64,000 nt of DNA from NCBI GenBank assembly GCA_038212075.1, contig JBBQUV010000003.1:20036-84035 (forward strand), given 5' to 3'. Each line of letters begins with the position of its first letter. The stretch's first letter is position 1. A model generated the notes under the pieces. That model was not told the origin of the DNA. It made no database searches and saw only the letters and a list, made by a program, of their open reading frames with translations. The DNA is from Minisyncoccia bacterium (GTDB lineage Bacteria; Patescibacteriota; Minisyncoccia; Phycocordibacterales; Phycocordibacteraceae). This document shows, in pieces, positions 173 to 58,046 of the stretch. The position numbers and the translations under genes are program-made.

Positions 173-218
173 GTGGTGAGCGAAGACATACATCTCTCGC
201 TTCGGCATACTGCGTGTT

Positions 219-291
219 GTGGAGCGAAGGCATGTGCATACAAAACACTAAACTCTGGTCTCTGTTTTGTATGCACATGCCGAGCGTAGAG
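219..291 (+). repeat. Structured hairpin repeat, copy 1: 18-19 bp perfect stem with a 15-nt loop CTAAACTCTGGTCTC and conserved flanks GGAGCGAAG / GAGCG
   Basis: ggcatgtgcatacaaaac(a) [loop] (t)gttttgtatgcacatgcc read directly. Second family member at 26484-26553. Confidence 0.6.
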
Positions 292-397
292 GTGTCCACA
301 TGTGCCTTTTTAACCCTTTGACTCCTTGCTACACTACAAGTAAGCAGGCCAATACCTGCGGGCCTATTAACCAGTTAAACGTTACTCGCATTACACT

Positions 398-1424: not shown

Positions 1425-1785
1425 GTGGAGAGAATCACAGGTTCGTTGACAATCGAATACGCATAGGTAAATCAAAGCTCCGATGTAACAGTCGGAGTGT
1501 AGAAAGTGCAAATTCATCTAGCGATGTTAGAAAGTTAATTGTGGTGTTCAGATCTCCGCACAGGAGACGTGAAGGGTGTATGGTGGATGCCTAGGCTTGT
1601 GACAGCGATGAAGGACGCTACTAATCAGCGATAGCTCCGGGGAGGCGATTTGTAGCCTTTGATCCGGAGGTCTCCGAATGGGGAAACCCGTCTGCGTATG
1701 CGGACATCTTCCGAGTAATGTCGGAAGGAGCGAACCTCGGGAAGTGAAACATCTCAGTACCGAGAGGAAAAGAAAACAAGAGCGA

Positions 1786-1840
1786 GCCGTGTTCTGTCTG
1801 CGCATTATGTTTGTGCAGATAGAACACGTCTCTCGCGATT
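1786..1840 (+). other. About 45-nt hairpin expansion segment in 23S domain I relative to E. coli
   Basis: Extra cgtgttctgtctgcgca...tgcagatagaacacg hairpin between GAAAAGAAA and GATTCCCC. Confidence 0.5.
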
Positions 1841-2103
1841 CCCCTAATAGCGGCGAGCGAAAAGGGAAAAGCCCAAACCTCTGCTTTCGGGCAGGGGGGT
1901 TGTAAGGCAGGAGCGCACAATTTATTGTGAAAGAGTTACCAATTGTCTTTATAGTGGAAGCTGCTGGGAAGCAGCGCCCCAGAGGGTAATGGCCCCGTAC
2001 ACGAAATAAATGACAACTCTTGCTCCTGTTCTTGAGTAGCTCGAGACACGAATAGCTCGAGTGAATCTGCCGGAACTAACCGGTAAGGCTAAATATGTCA
2101 CAG

Positions 2104-2143
<40 letters not shown>

Positions 2144-3595
2144 CACCCCGAGAGGGGAGTGAAATAGTACTGAAACCATACACTTACAAAGGGTGGGAGC
2201 GGGTCGAGAGCAATCTTGGCACCGTGACCGCGTGCCTATTGAAGAATGAGCCGGCGAGTGTGTATATGTTGCGTAGCTAAATCCTTTGACGGATGCAGCT
2301 GTAGGGAAACCGAGTGTGAATAGCGCGTAAGTAGCATATATACGACACGAAGCCAGATGAGCTTGCCATGAGCAGGGTGAAGTTTCTCGAAAGAGGAATG
2401 GAGGCCCGAACCCGTAGGCTGTGCAACACCTTGGGATGACTTGTGGCAAGGAGTGAAAAGCTAATCGAATCTGGTAATAGCTTGTTCTCTCCGAAACAGC
2501 TTTTGGGTTGGCGTCGCGTGTTCCCTCTGGGGGTAGAGCACTGGAAGGGTTCAACAGGGAGAAATCTCGTGAACCCTATCAACCTCCGAATACCAGAGAT
2601 CAAGAGCGCGGCAGTTAGAACGTGGGGGCGAAGCTCCACGGATCGAAAGGGGAAGAGCCCTGATCGCCAGTTAAGGCCCCTAAATCGACGCTCAGTATAT
2701 CCACAAGGAAGTGGGAATCCTTTGACAATGAGGATGTTGGCTTAGAAGCAGCCACCATTTAAAGAAAGCGTAACAGCTCACTCATCGAGGGTTCCTGCGC
2801 CGAAGATGATCGGGATTAAGCGTCGTGCCGAAACTGCGGGTGTACATCTTTTTCGAAAGATGTACGCGGTAGGAGAGCGTTCCATTCGCGCTGAAGCTAA
2901 AGGGGTGACCCATAGTGGAGCGTATGGAAGTGAGGATGCCGGTACAAGTAACCACAATGCGGGTGAGAACCCCGCACATCAAAAGACCAAGGATTCCTCG
3001 GCCATGGTAATCATCCGAGGGTTAGTCGGGCCTAAGAGGATGGCGAAAGCCGCACTCGATGGACACAAGGTTAATATTCCTTGACCGCTACACATGCGAA
3101 GAAGTGACGGACTGCTGTAATTATTGCCCATTATTGGATTTGGGTTGGTGCCGTGAGGAGGTGTACTAGGAAAATCCGGTACGCACTACTCCAAGCGGAG
3201 CCGCAATTTCCTCCTACGGGGGGAGAAAGAATAGTGAGCGCGGTTCCAAGAAAACCTTCTACGCTTCAGTGTGCTAGCGCCCGTACCGTAAACCGACACA
3301 GGTGGTCAAGTCGAGTAGACTACGATGAACGAGTTAGAGGTCCTCAAGGAACTCGGCAAAAAAGCGGCCGTAAGTTAGCGATAAGGCCTGGCTCTCGCAA
3401 GAGAGCCCGCAGTGAATGTGTCCCTGCCAACTGTTTACCAAAAACACAGCTCCCTGCGAACTCGTAAGAGGATGTATAGGGGGTGACGCCTGACCAATGC
3501 CGGAAGGTCAACCACGGGTGGTACCCTACTTCGGTAGTGTGCTGGACTGTGTAAGCCCCGGTGAATGTCGGCGATAACTATAATCGTCCTAAGGT

Positions 3596-3801
3596 CCTGC
3601 GTGTGAGCAATCGCACGCAGGACGGATTGGGACGATTATAGGAGACCGTAAACAGTGTTGAGAAACGTGCGTCATTTAAAGCTACCTCGTTATACGGTAA
3701 CGTATAACAGATCCGCGGCTCACAAGAGAGGCCATACGCCGCGCGTCCTCGCTGTAAAAAGATGAGGATGAAGAAATGGTCCTACGTTAAAGGAATAGTA
3801 G
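3596..3801 (+). mobile_element. 206-nt insertion at the 23S site equivalent to E. coli 1917 (CCUAAGGU^AGCGAAAUUCC). Possible small or degenerate group I intron
   Basis: Exon sequence is contiguous if 3596-3801 is removed. The 5' exon ends in T and the insert ends in G. Too short for a canonical group I core, and R/S elements are not clear. Confidence 0.45.
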
Positions 3802-4130
3802 AGCGCAATTCCTTGTCGGGTAAATTCCGACGTGCACGAATGGCGTAATGAGTGGGGAACTGTCTCGAGGACTCGCTCGGTGAAAATGCATTTCCGGTGA
3901 AGATGCCGGATACCTGTAGTTAGACGAAAAGACCCCAGGAGCTTTACTGCAGCTTCGTATTGGGGCTGCGTGCTTTATGCGTAGCATAGTGGGGAGAGGT
4001 TGAGATATCGGTTTCGGCTGATGTGGACTCGAAATATGAAATACCCATCTTAAAGTGTGCAGTTTCTAACCGATCGGACGAACCCGATCGGGACCGTGCG
4101 TGGCAGGCAGTTTTGGTGGGGCGCTATCCT

Positions 4131-4653
4131 TCGGCCAATGAATACTGGATTCGTTGGTCGAAGCCATGGCGCCCCGCGAAGCCTCAATAAGCTTCAAAAC
4201 AAATAAATAAGGGGGCGCGGCAGCAATGCTGCGGGCAAGTTGGGAATATGCTGGAAACACCGGTGGATGGTATGCTACTTGTATTAGCAAGTGACAATGT
4301 ATACCTGCGGTCAATCAGCAGGGAAGTTAATTAAACATGGAACAAATACCACAGGAGCCCAAAAAAGAAGGTAAAGAAGAACTTATGCACAGCCTCGATA
4401 TCTCTCTAGAGCTTATTGAGGACCATATGTCGGGAGCTCGAATGTGCGCAGCCAGTACTTCTAGCGAAGTTGCAAGCCATGAGGAAGAGTATATGGACAA
4501 GGCTTGGAAAGAAATTCGAGAGGCCAGAAAACTTCTTGAACAACTAAAAGACGGTTCCTAATGAATTAACCCCCTCAGAGACTACAAACCAACCATCCTG
4601 AAAAGGATGAATGTATAGTCCGCACTGCATGGCGACATGCAGATAACACAAGG
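4131..4653 (+). mobile_element. Group I intron in 23S rRNA, next to the P-loop (about E. coli 2262), 523 nt, containing a small ORF
   Basis: Exons align across GGGGCGCTATCCT | CCTAAAAAGTAACGGAGGAG. R-like tcagagactaca and S-like gaatgtatagtcc elements (P7) present. P/Q-like gctgcgggcaag / cctgcggtcaatcagcag. 5' exon ends in U and intron ends in G. Confidence 0.75.
4337..4561 (+). CDS. Intron-internal ORF (74 aa, acidic, no recognisable homing-endonuclease motif)
   Basis: ORF lies in a peripheral loop of the group I intron, between the Q and R elements. No LAGLIDADG/GIY-YIG/HNH motifs. Confidence 0.25.
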   Translation: MEQIPQEPKKEGKEELMHSLDISLELIEDHMSGARMCAASTSSEVASHEEEYMDKAWKEIREARKLLEQLKDGS

Positions 4654-4987
4654 CCTAAAAAGTAACGGAGGAGTCTATTAAGGTTCTCTAGTCGCGAATG
4701 GAAACCGTGACGATAGTGTAATGGCATAAGAGAGCTTAACTGCGAGGCGTACATGCCAAGCAGATGCGAAAGCAGAGCATAGTGAACCGATGGTCCGCCT
4801 TAGATGCGGCCAGAGATTAACGGATATAAGTTACCCTGGGGATAACAGGCTAGTTCCGCCCAAGCGTCCTTAGCGACGGCGGAGTTCGGCACCTCGATGT
4901 CGGCTCAACATAGCGCGGGGCTGGAGAAGGTCCCAAGCGTTTGGCTGTTCGCCAATTAAAATGTTACGTGAGCTGGGTTCAGACCGT

Positions 4988-5351
4988 TCAGTTGCTGAAA
5001 AGTATCGGCACTTGGACCGTCTGAACCCCTTCGAAGAAGTTATCAAGTCAAAAAGGTTTTTTCGTCTAAGCAAAAGAATAGAACCAACAAATATCACGGC
5101 GGTCTTGCATAGGAATATGCAAGAATCAAATCAACTGATATCGGTGAAATCCTGTAAAGGACAACACCGAGGGAAGAGGGCTTTAGCGACTCGCCAAACC
5201 AGAGAAGAAAGGTTTGGCTCGCTTGCATAAGTGTTCGCAAATCTTGCCTGAAGGCAAAATTTGCTCCCTTACCCGTAGAGACTGAACGTTGAACAGCGAG
5301 AACCGCTGAAGTTACAGTCCGATCCCCGCAGTAATGTGGGAAAACATGGTG
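4988..5351 (+). mobile_element. Group I intron in 23S rRNA at the site equivalent to E. coli about 2593 (AGAACGU^CGUGAGACAG), 364 nt
   Basis: Exons align across GGGTTCAGACCGT | CGTGAGACAGGTTGGTC. R-like gtagagactgaa and S-like agttacagtcc. 5' exon ends in U and intron ends in G. Confidence 0.7.
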
Positions 5352-5772
5352 CGTGAGACAGGTTGGTCTCCTATCTACTACAGGCGTTGATTATTGAGGA
5401 GGGTCGTCCCTAGTACGAGAGGACCGGGATGAACTGACCTCTGGTCTACCAGTTGTCCTGCCAAGGGCATTGCTGGGTAGCTATGTCGGGTTCCGATAAC
5501 CGCTGAAAGCATATAAGCGGGAAACGGGCTCCAAGATCAGTAATCGTTATGAGACACCTTGCAGATTACAAGGTTGATAGGCTTTAAGTGAAAGTGCCGT
5601 AAGGTATTGAGCTGAGAAGTACTAATATGTCCAGTTCTCTTGTGCGGAACTCTGGGTGCCACAAAGCGCTATGAGTTTGCACTTGCTACGATTTTGAATT
5701 ACTTATGCGTATTCGGTTGTTAACGATACCAAGACATTGGTCCGTTGGAATCGAATTGTTTATTGAAAGTTT

Positions 5773-10428: not shown

Positions 10429-11481
10429 ATGAATACACACACTTTACTTATTACAGGAGCGGCGGGATACGTTGGCGCAATGCTTGTGGATCAATATTCT
10501 AAGCGTAGCGACGTAGAAAAAATTATCGGGCTTGATAAAGATTCTGCGCCAGCGCTTATTAAAGACAATCCAAAGCTGGTGTATATACAGGCGAACACTT
10601 CTGACGTCGGGTGGGAAGAAAAGGTGAAGGCATACAATCCGGATATTGTTATCCATACGGCGTGGCAAATACGGTGTTTTTACGGCAACGCGCCGCTTGC
10701 GTGGAAGTGGAATGTGGACGGCACAAAACGAGTGTTTGCGTTTGCGTTCAATACCACGAGTGTGAAGCGGCTCATACATTTTTCAACCGCTTCTATTTAC
10801 GGCGCGTACAAAACAAACACGCTTGACCACTACTTCAAAGAATCGGAACCGATGCGCGAGAGCGAATATTTGTACGGCGTAGAAAAACGACAATCGGAAG
10901 ATGATGTGAACGCGCTTCGCACGACGAGGAAAGACGTGCAGGTATTTATGGTGCGTCCGGCGGCCATCACTGGCCCACGTGGGCGCGCCATGCATTACCG
11001 TTTTGGTTTACAGTCGGCGCTTTCAGGTACGCTGAAAGGCTCATTCGTTTACAGCATTGTGCGAGCGCTTGTTTCGTTTGTACCGTCCACGCCGGGATGG
11101 TGCCGTCAGTTTGTGCATGAAGACGACGTGGCGGATATCATCGGGAAACTCGCGTTTGATTCTATAGATTCTTCATATGAAGTATTCAATCTCACCCCAC
11201 CCGGACTTCCGGTACTTCCAAAAGATATGGCAAAAGCGGTGGGGAAACGCACGGTGAATATTCCGGTGCCGTTTATTCGTCTCGCATACTTTTTGTTTTG
11301 GCACCTTACCCGTGGAAAAATTCCAACTGCGCCCGGTAGTTGGCGATTCTACTCGTACCCTGTGGTAATGGACGGAACAAAAGTAACTACCATGCTTGGG
11401 CACGTATACAAAATGGAATCAAAAGATGCGTTTGTAAAAAACGAAGGAAGATATGCCGTTCCACCGACAAAGCGAAAATGA
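10429..11481 (+). CDS. NAD-dependent nucleotide-sugar epimerase/dehydratase (SDR family)
   Basis: N-terminal ITGAAGYVG Rossmann motif, 350 aa. Confidence 0.75.
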   Translation: MNTHTLLITGAAGYVGAMLVDQYSKRSDVEKIIGLDKDSAPALIKDNPKLVYIQANTSDVGWEEKVKAYNPDIVIHTAWQIRCFYGNAPLAWKWNVDGTKRVFAFAFNTTSVKRLIHFSTASIYGAYKTNTLDHYFKESEPMRESEYLYGVEKRQSEDDVNALRTTRKDVQVFMVRPAAITGPRGRAMHYRFGLQSALSGTLKGSFVYSIVRALVSFVPSTPGWCRQFVHEDDVADIIGKLAFDSIDSSYEVFNLTPPGLPVLPKDMAKAVGKRTVNIPVPFIRLAYFLFWHLTRGKIPTAPGSWRFYSYPVVMDGTKVTTMLGHVYKMESKDAFVKNEGRYAVPPTKRK

Positions 11482-11535
11482 ACACCGCTCCGGGCCGCTT
11501 GGCCAAGTCTTAGTATTCATTTTCGCCTTGTCGGC

Positions 11536-18183: not shown

Positions 18184-18200
18184 TTTTGTTCCGCCTATTC
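18184..18200 (+). promoter_or_regulatory. 5' strand of the 17-bp pre-16S processing stem
   Basis: ttttgttccgcctattc is the perfect complement of 19807-19823. Confidence 0.6.
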
Positions 18201-18206
18201 TTAATT

Positions 18207-19651
<1,445 letters not shown>

Positions 19652-19806
19652 TATCCGAATGGAATCGGTTCTCCCGAAAGGAGGACCAAGTCGAACGTGT
19701 CGCAAGACACGAGGGAGATAGCACTACGTCCCCAAACGTGTGCTCGGTAGCCCCATACGTCAGGGGCGCTGGAGTCGGAGCGCTCAATTGACGCTCTGAA
19801 TACGGC
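19652..19806 (+). other. 155-nt 3' trailer/extension of the 16S transcript enclosed by the processing stem
   Basis: Lies between GGATCA and the 3' stem strand. Contains AGGAGG but no CCTCC. Confidence 0.5.
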
Positions 19807-20651: not shown

Positions 20652-20670
20652 GTGTGTTGTGTGTTGTGTG
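20652..20670 (+). repeat. Short (GTGTT/GTG)n simple repeat spacer
   Basis: gtgtgttgtgtgttgtgtg. Confidence 0.6.
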
Positions 20671-20742
20671 CACGCTTAGCTCAGCTGGTAGAGCACTCGA
20701 CTGATACTCGAGCGGTCCTAGGTTCGACTCCTAGAGCGTGCA
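20670..20742 (+). tRNA. tRNA-Ile (anticodon GAT), 73 nt, no encoded CCA
   Basis: Hand-folded cloverleaf: acceptor gcacgct/agcgtgc, D arm gctc-agctggta-gagc, anticodon arm ctcga-ctGATac-tcgag, T arm ctagg-ttcgact-cctag. Confidence 0.85.
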
Positions 20743-20765
20743 CACAACATGGAACAGTAGCTTCG

Positions 20766-20812
20766 CTCCACTGATACTCGAGCGGTCGTAGGTTCGACTC
20801 CTACCGCACGCA
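20766..20812 (+). pseudogene. 3' half of a second tRNA-like gene (anticodon arm with GAT, variable loop, T arm, acceptor 3' strand + discriminator A)
   Basis: ctcca-ctgatac-tcgag-cggtc-gtagg-ttcgact-cctac-cgcacgc-a. 20770-20804 is near-identical to 20700-20734 of the intact tRNA-Ile. Confidence 0.45.
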
Positions 20813-20885
20813 CTAGAGAGAGGCCGCCTAAAGGCGGTTTTCTCATTTATACCCATACGTATCCTATCCAGACTGTTTTGCGAGC

Positions 20886-25784: not shown

Positions 25785-26468
25785 ATGAATGGCACCCTTT
25801 CAATCGTTGCGACACCCATAGGGAATCTCGGAGATATCACGCTTCGGGCATTGGACACACTGAAGCGTGCGGATGTTATCGCGTGCGAGGACACGCGTGT
25901 GACGGCAAAGCTATTGCAGAGATACGATATTCAAAAACCGTTGGTTATTTACCACGCTCGTTCAGGACGACTGAATACCACGCGTGTGCTCTCAATGCTT
26001 GGGGAAGGAAAGCATGTTGCACTCGTGACTGACGCCGGTACGCCAGGAATTTCTGATCCCGGTGCAGAACTTGTTGCGGAAGTCCGTGCACGGCTCGGCG
26101 ACGATGTTCGTATTGAAACTATTCCGGGCGCGGCCGCAGTAACCGCCGCGCTTTCTATTGCGGGAGTGCCCTGTGCGGACTTTACCTTTCTCGGATTTTT
26201 ACCACACAAAAAAGGACGCGAGACTCTTTTCAAAGAAATCGCAGAAGGCAAGCGTACCTATGTTTTTTATGAATCTCCGCACCGCGCAACGAAAGCGCTT
26301 GATTCGCTCGCGAAGATTTTGCCCGAAAAGCGCATGGTTGCCGTTTGCCGTGAACTCACCAAAATTCACGAGTCGGTGGTGCGGGGAAGCGCCAAAGAGG
26401 TGGTCGCTTACTTTGCTAAAAACAAAGATCAGGTTCGCGGGGAGTTTGTGATTATTGTCGGAACGTAA
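25785..26468 (+). CDS. rsmI: 16S rRNA (cytidine1402-2'-O)-methyltransferase
   Basis: Tetrapyrrole-methylase fold, LSIVATPIGNLGDITLRALDTLKRADVIACEDTR. Confidence 0.85.
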   Translation: MNGTLSIVATPIGNLGDITLRALDTLKRADVIACEDTRVTAKLLQRYDIQKPLVIYHARSGRLNTTRVLSMLGEGKHVALVTDAGTPGISDPGAELVAEVRARLGDDVRIETIPGAAAVTAALSIAGVPCADFTFLGFLPHKKGRETLFKEIAEGKRTYVFYESPHRATKALDSLAKILPEKRMVAVCRELTKIHESVVRGSAKEVVAYFAKNKDQVRGEFVIIVGT

Positions 26469-26483
26469 TTGCTCTTTTTTGTC

Positions 26484-26553
26484 ATGGAGTGAGGCACGTA
26501 CCCGCCGGAGACTAAACTAGGTCTCTCTCCGGCGGGTACGTGCCGAGCGGAAA
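26484..26553 (+). repeat. Structured hairpin repeat, copy 2: 19-bp stem (ggcacgtacccgccggaga / tctccggcgggtacgtgcc) with loop CTAAACTAGGTCTC and conserved flanks GGAGTGAG / GAGCG
   Basis: Read directly. Loop and flanks match copy 1 at 219-291 while the stem interior differs with full compensation. Confidence 0.6.
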
Positions 26554-26588
26554 GTTATCCACTTTTCGTTGTTTTGCAGATGCTCTTG

Positions 26589-26594
26589 TATACT
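26589..26594 (+). promoter_or_regulatory. -10 hexamer TATACT, 7 nt before the ATG at 26601 (leaderless configuration)
   Basis: tatact gcgggt ATG. Confidence 0.4.
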
Positions 26595-26600
26595 GCGGGT

Positions 26601-26825
26601 ATGTCAAAAGAAGGAACACTCATTACGCTCGGTGTCCTTGTCGCTATCTCTCCTTTCCTTGGACTCCCGCTTTCCTGGCTTTCGTTCTTTCTTCCCGTTA
26701 TGGGCACCATCACGCTTTTCATCGGATACCTGATTCGCCGTGATCATGTCGCATCTCACACGCGCTTGCAGACAGTGCAAGACACTCCTTCATTTGATAC
26801 TTCTGCACCGTCGCCAATTGCATAG
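26601..26825 (+). CDS. Small membrane protein (2 TM)
   Basis: MSKEGTLITLGVLVAISPFLGLPLSWLSFFLPVMGTITLFIGYLI... Confidence 0.5.
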   Translation: MSKEGTLITLGVLVAISPFLGLPLSWLSFFLPVMGTITLFIGYLIRRDHVASHTRLQTVQDTPSFDTSAPSPIA

Positions 26826-29040: not shown

Positions 29041-29206
29041 AACTTTTTTGCTGAAAGGTGAGTAGTAATACGTGTACTGATACACCGTAACCATACGTGG
29101 CATATGCAAAGAAAGCACTATGCCCGCACGCCGAAGCCATAGTGCCGGGGCGTGCGGGCGCTATGCTTTTCAGGCGCCGAGTATACTGGTACTGTCCACC
29201 TATTCC

Positions 29207-58017: not shown

Positions 58018-58046
58018 TGGAAAACGCCCCTCACGGGGCGTTTTCC
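58018..58046 (+). terminator. Rho-independent terminator (aaaacgcccc-tcac-ggggcgtttt)
   Basis: Perfect GC stem flanked by A and T tracts, so it may function in both directions. Confidence 0.75.

Follow-up and report, generated by a model that had tools for sequence, protein, structure and literature searches.

Two intergenic hairpins with a shared loop and unrelated inner stems in a Patescibacteria chromosome: a possible REP/MITE-like palindromic insertion element

HUH and Y1 enzymes read hairpins as folded single strands via a few exposed bases. In the hairpins of this kind (CRESS-DNA/geminivirus Rep origins, rolling-circle plasmid origins and IS200/IS605 ends), a conserved loop or foot sits on a variable stem, and the enzyme reads the structure together with a few single-stranded bases. 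Miniature inverted-repeat transposable elements (MITEs, e.g. Correia, RPE and ERIC-type) have terminal inverted repeats, no coding capacity, intergenic positions, presence/absence polymorphism and possible flanking direct repeats; their copies share the whole sequence, which is usually 100-400 bp long. Repetitive extragenic palindromic sequences (REPs) are 20-40 bp long, with short loops, a GTAG or CGTC tag, a high copy number and similar stems within a family; an unpaired conserved motif lies next to the stem, they are probably transcribed as RNA hairpins, and they have been proposed to be mobilised as folded single strands by RAYT Y1 transposases (PMC3733652). Here we describe hairpin A, a palindrome present in two copies in a 64-kb stretch of DNA (the window) from a Minisyncoccia bacterium (GenBank assembly GCA_038212075.1, contig JBBQUV010000003.1, positions 20,036 to 84,035). 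The copies share their loop, stem base and flanks and carry unrelated inner stems, and we tentatively read them as a lineage-restricted insertion element comparable to REPs and MITEs.

Both copies are intergenic and oriented with transcription. Copy 1 (229-281) lies 56 nt past the stop codon (170-172) of an unnamed plus-strand gene and upstream of a mechanosensitive-channel-like gene (398-1081); copy 2 (26493-26544) lies 24 nt past the rsmI stop codon (26466-26468) and upstream of a gene for a 74-aa membrane protein (26601-26825). The repeat finder returned 19-nt arms of 100% complementarity at each locus, spaced by 15 nt in copy 1 and by 14 nt in copy 2. Read linearly, copy 1 is gtGGAGCGAA-GGCATGTGCATACAAAACA-CTAAACTCTGGTCTC-TGTTTTGTATGCACATGCC-GAGCGtagag and copy 2 is atGGAGTGA-GGCACGTACCCGCCGGAGA-CTAAACTAGGTCTC-TCTCCGGCGGGTACGTGCC-GAGCGgaaag, which leaves as common parts the loop CTAAACT-N1-2-GGTCTC, the stem base GGCAYGT/ACRTGCC and the flanks GGAGYGA and GAGCG. 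The loops (14-15 nt) are identical except for 1-2 nt, and neither the stem length (19 bp) nor the closing A-T pair varies. Comparing the stems pair by pair, 10 of 19 are identical (positions 1-4, 6-7, 9, 13, 17 and 19), 9 of 19 are changed on both sides and none on one side only. All 38 stem cells over the two copies are Watson-Crick and none is G-U. The conserved parts of the two copies differ by only about four changes, and the inner 12 stem positions show four matches, roughly the chance level. An earlier sequence-only reading of this DNA had reported perfect stems at these two sites with near-identical loops and shared flanks, placed in intergenic DNA downstream of plus-strand genes, on the plus strand and without a U tract; repeat finder, alignment, open reading frames (ORFs) and flanks bear all of this out. 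Its description of the stems as completely different is right for the inner 12 bp and overstated for the stem as a whole, in which the 10 identical positions would otherwise be overlooked.

Predicted stabilities of the hairpins are about -34 to -45 kcal/mol, with fold z-scores of -7.4 to -8.2 against shuffles, as RNA or DNA and on either strand. Both strands fold equally well, and folding prefers neither. On the minus strand, the loop makes a 4-bp AGAC/GUUU apical helix in both copies, with the variable loop bases only at the helix tip. We searched the window for the loop pattern CTAAACT-N0-3-GGTCTC and found two sites, both of them the hairpins, where shuffles give an expectation of 0.00. The same two sites, and no others, came back for GGAGYGA-N0-1-GGCAYGT-N35-50-ACRTGCCGAGCG, a pattern independent of the loop, again with 0.00 expected. 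Because the loop and flank patterns each match two sites against this expectation, copies 1 and 2 are homologous and not coincidental palindromes, and chance is ruled out as their origin. GAG(Y)G(A)-type direct repeats bracket both hairpins and are the same at both loci, where the empty sites of relatives are too diverged to align. A further partial direct repeat of the 5' end of copy 1, 44 nt upstream of it (table 1), may be a relic of an earlier or partial copy. A small peptide encoded in the hairpin was also considered and is ruled out: the loops differ by a 1-nt indel that puts the copies out of frame with each other, and a start codon is missing from copy 2.

Comparison of orthologous sequences shows each copy to be an insertion specific to this lineage. 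Other Paceibacteria assemblies encode relatives of RsmI and the channel protein at 80-87% identity, and in none of the relatives examined does the orthologous spacer hold the element. Locus 1 is empty in relatives L037 and L130, in which the stop codon is followed by 3 nt and then GGGTATCCACA. Locus 2 is empty in L001 (GCA_049287125) and L004 (GCA_040384165), in which the stop codon is followed by 6 nt and then TATACACA or GTTATCCCC. The spacer from rsmI to the next gene is accordingly about 50 nt in L001 and L004 versus 132 nt in the window, and the P0005 contig, also empty at locus 2, has a spacer of 12 nt. The sequence box and the -10-like motif that follow each hairpin are thus ancestral, and the stretch from stop codon to box, about 115 nt at locus 1 and about 80 nt at locus 2, is new in the window lineage. 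The closest RsmI relative, L125, carries a different hairpin family at the locus 2 site, with the loop of hairpin B described below.

The two insertions precede the same rare kind of promoter, marked by a TNTCCAC box, about 10 nt upstream of the box. Within the window, the arrangement of box and -10 occurs only at these two intergenic loci and once inside the 23S gene, with 1.2 expected. The distance of about 10 nt is uninformative by itself, because the empty sites leave just 3-6 nt between stop codon and box. The box, GT(A/T)TCCAC(A), is conserved among relatives, sits 25-29 nt upstream of the -10-like TACACT/TATACT and looks like a DnaA-box-like 9-mer. Its distance from the -10 is too great for a -35 element, and it may be a regulator site common to the two membrane-protein genes. 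At the site of copy 1, L035 (9763-9880) and L126 (2750-2880) carry an imperfect hairpin of about 110-130 nt before the GGGTATCCACA box. These two hairpins have a common centre (GCGTCGTTGC...CGTATnTTCnAATACG...TCGCGCC) and differing outer arms, and are homologous to each other, not to the window hairpin. We tried the locus 1 spacer as a remnant of the L035/L126 hairpin and ruled this out, with alignment scores that lie within those of shuffles.

Table 1. Coordinates of hairpin A, its surroundings and the hairpin B loop (columns: feature; position in the window; strand; sequence or remark; basis).
Copy 1, conserved 5' flank	221-228	+	GGAGCGAA	sequence, two-copy alignment
Copy 1, left arm	229-247	+	GGCATGTGCATACAAAACA; first 7 nt conserved, inner 12 variable	repeat finder, pair counts
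Copy 1, loop	248-262	+	CTAAACTCTGGTCTC	sequence, pattern search
Copy 1, right arm	263-281	+	TGTTTTGTATGCACATGCC	repeat finder
Copy 1, 3' flank	282-291	+	GAGCGTAGAG; GAGCG-N-A-N-AG also in copy 2	alignment
Copy 2, conserved 5' flank	26486-26492	+	GGAGTGA	sequence, two-copy alignment
Copy 2, left arm	26493-26511	+	GGCACGTACCCGCCGGAGA	repeat finder, pair counts
Copy 2, loop	26512-26525	+	CTAAACTAGGTCTC	sequence, pattern search
Copy 2, right arm	26526-26544	+	TCTCCGGCGGGTACGTGCC	repeat finder
Copy 2, 3' flank	26545-26553	+	GAGCGGAAA	alignment
Lineage-specific insertion, locus 1	173-291	+	between stop codon (170-172) and ancestral box GTGTCCACA	
Lineage-specific extra DNA, locus 2	26469-26553	+	between rsmI stop codon and ancestral box GTTATCCAC	
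Box and -10-like motif, locus 1, outside the element	292-335	+	GTGTCCACA (292-300) and TACACT (330-335)	ancestral; conserved in L035, L037, L126 and L130
Box and -10-like motif, locus 2, outside the element	26554-26594	+	GTTATCCAC (26554-26562) and TATACT (26589-26594)	ancestral; L004 has GTTATCCCC...GATACT there without hairpin
Partial direct repeat of copy 1 5' end	174-190	+	TGGTGAGCGAAGACAT, repeat of TGTGGAGCGAAGGCAT (218-234); 13/16 identical, 44 nt upstream	repeat scan
Hairpin B loop			CTCCGGGCCGCTNGGCCAAGTC	sequence

No third copy was found in the window, either with up to three mismatches or with a covariance model (R1) built from the two copies only, and R1 gave nothing credible on about 128 kb from six related genomes. 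Larger collections were scanned with patterns that require exact matches, by which diverged relatives would be missed. Among 185,579 representative genomes (GTDB) there were nine matches, all in unrelated organisms and none in a hairpin. The flank-only pattern had no match in the JGI metagenomes and the stem-base-plus-loop pattern had 20 (0 hairpins), and the IMG/VR scans gave 0, 87 (0 hairpins) and 0 matches. BLAST of phage and plasmid collections returned nothing meaningful. Rfam at the gathering threshold matched only rRNAs and tRNA in the window, and in E-value mode it gave only generic miRNA-precursor-like matches far below threshold. An old, widely conserved motif with the hairpin A loop is thus excluded by these scans, and a known RNA family is ruled out, Rfam having no match for the hairpins at the gathering threshold or in E-value mode.

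We then set hairpin A beside the described systems. REP and REPIN sequences resemble it as short non-coding palindromes that lie mostly downstream of genes between co-directional ORFs. Hairpin A differs from REPs in its length (52-53 nt), in its conserved loop of 14-15 nt and in its flanks, GGAGYGA(A) and GAGCG (CGCTC on the minus strand), without a GTAG or CGTC tag; it has two copies with unrelated inner stems, and there is no RAYT among about 50 ORFs of the window. The comparison with MITEs goes further. Hairpin A has 19-bp perfect inverted arms and no plausible ORF, and its orthologous sites are empty in L037, L130, L001 and L004. Unlike MITEs, however, its copies have no more in common than the loop, the flanks and 7 bp at the outer end of the arms, and whole-length similarity derived from a parent IS was not found, since the inner 12 bp are unrelated and the window holds no IS or transposase. 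The likeness to HUH hairpins is a functional analogy, a conserved loop on a variable stem. GAGYGA on the 5' side and GAGCG on the 3' side of the hairpin are compatible with the flanking motifs of IS200/IS605-type elements, as far as two copies can tell. Hairpin A nevertheless has no Rep or TnpA gene, iterons or replicon context, its loop matches no known nick site, and it is chromosomal with two copies.

Intrinsic (Rho-independent) terminators are likewise stable hairpins right after a stop codon and ahead of the next promoter, but hairpin A has no U tract, a very large loop, and conserved loop and flanks. No U tract was found 3' of either copy, where the flanks are GAGCGTAGAGG and GAGCGGAAAGT; the loops of 14-15 nt exceed the 3-8 nt of short-loop terminators; and a terminator scan of the window calls neither hairpin. 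Canonical bidirectional terminator-like palindromes with short loops and T runs (AAAAAGCCCC...GGGGCTTTTT type) are present at 1226-1256, 1395-1426 and 58019-58046. These palindromes indicate that the organism uses ordinary intrinsic-terminator hairpins, from which the hairpins A differ.

Two further candidates were rejected. Integron attC sites have R''/R' core sites (RYYYAAC ... GTTRRRY) and an imperfect stem with extrahelical bases, and form cassette arrays by intI. Hairpin A is not an attC site: its stem base is GGCAYGT/ACRTGCC, its stems are perfect, its copies are solitary and 26 kb apart, and the window has no integrase. The guide RNAs of TIGR-Tas (tigRNAs) carry two variable spacers of 8-12 nt with box C/D motifs inside the loop, in tandem arrays beside a Nop-domain tas gene (PMC12045711; bioRxiv 10.64898/2026.09.09.750476). 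They share with hairpin A variable yet always palindromic stems, conservation at few positions and the host group, the Candidate Phyla Radiation (CPR), in which TIGR-Tas systems are common. Hairpin A has neither variable spacers nor box C/D in its loop, no tandem array and no nearby tas gene, and a TIGR-Tas tigRNA is disfavoured because its architecture does not fit. In all, hairpin A lacks the defining features tested for intrinsic terminators, GTAG/CGTC REPs, attC sites, tigRNAs and every Rfam family, and shows those of MITEs in part. Hairpin A is best described as a small intergenic palindromic repeat, unusual in its long invariant loop, its conserved base and flanks and its unrelated inner stems of equal length.

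A second hairpin of the window, hairpin B (11464-11534), bears on how such stems can come about. Its arms, 22 nt each, depart from perfect complementarity by two transitions and enclose a loop of 27 nt, CGCTCCGGGCCGCTTGGCCAAGTCTTA. Its left arm is the last six codons of an epimerase gene (..VPPTKRK-stop), and its right arm is the inverted copy of these codons. The tail of the epimerase gene looks ancestral from its sequence, because relatives end in ..VVPETLRK or ..VVPPEARK, L129 has the same AAAATGA overlap with folD, and the DNA is about 70% identical. In L128 and L129, epimerase and folD overlap by ATGA with a spacer of 0, which places an insertion of about 66 nt after ATGA in the window; this insert is made up of ACAC, the loop, the 22 nt immediately upstream copied as their reverse complement, CTACACTACACGT and a second ATGA. 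As the arm of hairpin B is ancestral coding sequence, hairpins with a shared loop and different stems can, on this sequence comparison, arise in this lineage by inverted duplication of local DNA. The same loop recurs in L125 (3720-3747) directly downstream of rsmI, in the very spacer that copy 2 of hairpin A occupies in the window, with a completely different left arm; the L125 contig ends inside the loop. Hairpins A and B thus differ in what is shared: A has a shared outer stem and flanks with a variable inner stem, whereas B has a shared loop and a locally made stem. The hairpin B insertion also split the ATGA stop/start overlap with folD and put a -10-like CTACACT directly upstream of folD. 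On its minus strand, both arm mismatches become G-U, and the RNA fold is -51.9 versus -35.0 kcal/mol.

An imperfect hairpin at 29112-29169 (21-nt arms, 16-nt loop), downstream of a TraG/VirD4-like ATPase gene, is orthologous to L004 9900-9960, with a common outer stem (TATGCCCsCACG) and a different inner stem and loop. It is another case of segmental hairpin remodelling in this lineage. Replication template switching is known to create and repair perfect stems and to introduce multi-base compensatory changes in one event (Monttinen & Loytynoja 2022, PMC8794818). Hairpin A resembles template-switch hairpins, in which perfect reverse-complement arms and compensatory changes over several bases come about at once and without G-U intermediates, and hairpin B shows the predicted footprint of an arm copied from the DNA beside it. 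Template switching is, however, a mutational mechanism and not an element family, and by itself it leaves open why distant loci have the same loop and flanks. We looked for the arms of hairpin A as copies of local DNA. The empty sites of locus 2 contain neither arm. The one resemblance at locus 1 is marginal and post hoc: of the 13 outermost nt of the right arm, 11 agree with GTATCCACATACC, the ancestral box region of L130 (shuffle p ~0.009). Other arm-to-local matches (9/11) are at chance level, about three being expected per locus.

Our preferred reading, which we hold tentatively and regard as possible but short of probable, is that the hairpins are copies of one non-coding, lineage-restricted, REP/MITE-like palindromic insertion element of about 65-75 nt. 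It ranks first on four grounds: both loci are polymorphic for the insertion, the arms form terminal inverted repeats, repeats of GAG(Y)G type bracket the hairpins, and sister genomes have repeatedly gained unrelated hairpins at the same gene boundaries. The homology of the copies, their insertion, their architecture and their lack of canonical terminator features are established; a mobilising enzyme, the origin of the differing inner stems and an insulator role are inferred. Each copy is an insertion of extra DNA that separates the stop codon of the upstream operon from the promoter-proximal box of the next gene. Loop, stem base and GAG(Y)G flanks would be recognised on the folded single strand by a trans-acting protein, most likely an HUH/Y1-type transposase or nuclease encoded outside the window; by analogy, the conservation pattern resembles that left by a protein reading a folded single strand through few exposed bases. 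The inner stem would need only to pair, and may have been rewritten and kept perfect by arm-to-arm copying at the DNA level (replication template switching); stepwise compensation at the RNA level is not the source that we propose. The contrast between about four changes in the conserved parts and random-level identity of the inner stems implies that the inner stems were replaced or rewritten, or else that very strong constraint acts on everything but them. That both stems are 19 bp long and have the same closing A-T pair argues for some constraint on geometry. Once inserted, the element would be co-transcribed with the upstream operon to give a very stable 3' stem-loop, which might act as a barrier or insulator before the next, apparently regulated, promoter.

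Several points weigh against an insertion element of this kind. Only two copies are known, both in the 64-kb window. Mobile elements usually agree from copy to copy along their entire sequence; in hairpin A, 12 bp of each arm are unrelated, for a cause that we infer. No target-site duplication is demonstrable, the closest relatives being 13-15% diverged at the protein level with spacers that do not align. A scan of about 50 window ORFs against Pfam found no partner gene in cis (transposase, integrase, HUH, Y1, RAYT, reverse transcriptase or Nop/Tas). The role as a 3' stem-loop or insulator is purely conjectural, and a protein-binding motif acting at the RNA level would suit stems of equal length and an unvarying loop just as well. 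A bolder extension, which we think quite unlikely, is that hairpins A and B belong to an undescribed class of 'loop cassettes' in Paceibacteria and other CPR bacteria, whose short conserved core would spread between gene boundaries and whose long, perfectly complementary stems, specific to each locus, would be formed by inverted duplication, from template switching or by a dedicated enzyme. The outcome would be new terminator or insulator hairpins between the genes of a very compact genome and, for B, a new -10-like promoter.

On another reading, hairpin A is a cis-acting structured RNA motif in the 3' untranslated region of the upstream operon, or an antisense RNA, with a protein binding loop and stem base and stems that covary since only pairing matters; its role might be, for instance, control of stability or processing, or factor-dependent termination. 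A motif of this kind would account for a loop, closing pair, stem base and exact stem length that are kept while the inner stem varies. It also agrees with the extremely stable fold, with the orientation of both copies along transcription, with their position about 10 nt ahead of the TNTCCAC-box promoters, of which the window has just these two, and with the apical helix of the minus-strand loop. We nevertheless find it doubtful. The element is missing from the orthologous sites of all relatives examined, the covariance model recovers nothing from their 128 kb or so, there is no exact hairpin match in GTDB representatives, JGI metagenomes or IMG/VR and no Rfam match, and no promoter or terminator of its own was detected. 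The complete lack of G-U pairs (0/38) is unexpected for an old RNA helix. Slow drift at the RNA level is disfavoured because it should have left both G-U pairs and presence in related genomes, neither of which is seen, and stems that are Watson-Crick throughout are a better match for palindromes formed or kept up as DNA than for slow covariation of an RNA. The sequence-only reading had taken fully covarying pairs as the signature of a selected structured element. This argument does not carry over to two paralogous copies that lack G-U pairs and are absent in relatives and collections, the more so as hairpin B offers an alternative. Among the candidates that it named (an RNA motif, a transposase hairpin substrate or a terminator-like structure), the transposase/HUH substrate is the most compatible and none is proven. 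It had further proposed to look in related genomes for the loop inside inverted repeats and to build a covariance model, and had held that a lack of further copies and of loop conservation would reduce the pair to coincidental palindromes. The first search gave no further copy in relatives or collections, and the model only the two known copies in the window and none in the relatives. Further copies were indeed found neither in the window nor in the relatives and collections searched, but what follows is a young, lineage-restricted insertion element and not a coincidence.

Hairpin A might instead be a by-product of palindrome-prone replication, without dedicated function or mobility: a local template-switch inverted duplication, then one ectopic templated copy, then an inner stem rewritten by further switches. 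The mechanism is documented (PMC8794818; PMC13100816). Hairpin B, with its arm copied from local coding DNA, and hairpin 29112-29169, which has kept only its outer stem in common with L004, point the same way, as does the 11/13 match of the copy 1 right arm to the neighbouring ancestral box. The ends of the inner stems also resemble the adjoining loop halves; in copy 1 ACAAAACA adjoins ACTAAACT, and in copy 2 the TCTCC of the arm comes after the GGTCTC of the loop. Against this, several rare events would be required, all of them sparing loop, flanks and stem length; the exact 19 bp in both copies and the shared rare promoter box next to them would stay unexplained, and the arm-to-box similarity is post hoc and marginal after multiple-test correction. 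We judge this account unlikely. Another proposal, a transcription terminator that merely lacks a U tract and owes its shared loop and flanks to duplication, suits the position after stop codons ahead of the next promoter and the other hairpins that relatives carry at the same boundaries. It is very unlikely all the same, given that there is no T run, that the 14-15-nt loop is far above those of the canonical terminators of this genome, that the terminator scan calls neither copy, and that a conserved loop and flanks with unrelated inner stems would go unexplained. The alternation of conserved and variable segments (conserved-variable-conserved-variable-conserved) would also suit an RNA of guide type, such as a solitary tigRNA of TIGR-Tas, with the targeting information in its variable stem, and stem-loop TIGR arrays of CPR bacteria do have 'variable but consistently palindromic' stems (PMC12045711; bioRxiv 10.64898/2026.09.09.750476). 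With an invariant 14-15-nt loop, copies 26 kb apart, no Nop/Tas among the scanned ORFs, and variable stem 14-mers that, searched as guides or spacers, have no match and thus no target elsewhere in the window, we consider a guide RNA extremely improbable.

The window around the REP/MITE-like candidate is ordinary chromosomal DNA of Patescibacteria (Paceibacteria/'Minisyncoccia'), with 23S-5S rRNA genes, a separate 16S gene and tRNA-Ile. Its genes, nearly all on the plus strand, include cell-wall, glycosyltransferase, Sec, Obg and GatB genes; the Pfam scan of about 50 ORFs found housekeeping genes throughout, and the GC skew is positive across the whole window. The 23S rRNA match (1560-5645) spans 4086 nt versus 2925 nt in the model, with about 1.1 kb extra inside the gene that may represent a single intron or several. 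The 23S-5S genes are not linked to the 16S gene (18200-19659), and ARAGORN made two overlapping tRNA-Ile(GAT) calls at 20670-20813. Downstream of copy 1, the leader of the mechanosensitive-channel-like gene (336-397, GTAAGCAGGCCAATACCTGCGGGCCTATTAACCAGTTAAACGTT) is nearly identical in L035, L126 and L130, although identity between the proteins is no higher than 83-87%. Within this leader lies a small conserved hairpin that shows no covariation and no Rfam match, and the leader of L037 is longer and different.

At present, hairpin A is a two-copy element of a single genome, with at most a putative function. It nonetheless carries a caution for the reading of such hairpins: a pair of copies with fully 'compensatory' stems is no evidence, taken alone, of selection at the RNA level, because hairpin B, with its shared loop, took one arm from neighbouring coding DNA. 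To our knowledge, mobile DNA and transcription signals of CPR bacteria are almost unstudied. If a protein does read a mobile hairpin via its loop and stem base, hairpin A would be a compact example in CPR bacteria of recognition by structure plus a few bases. That different hairpin families were gained repeatedly at the same operon boundaries in close relatives suggests that such hairpins serve these highly compact genomes as their working insulators.

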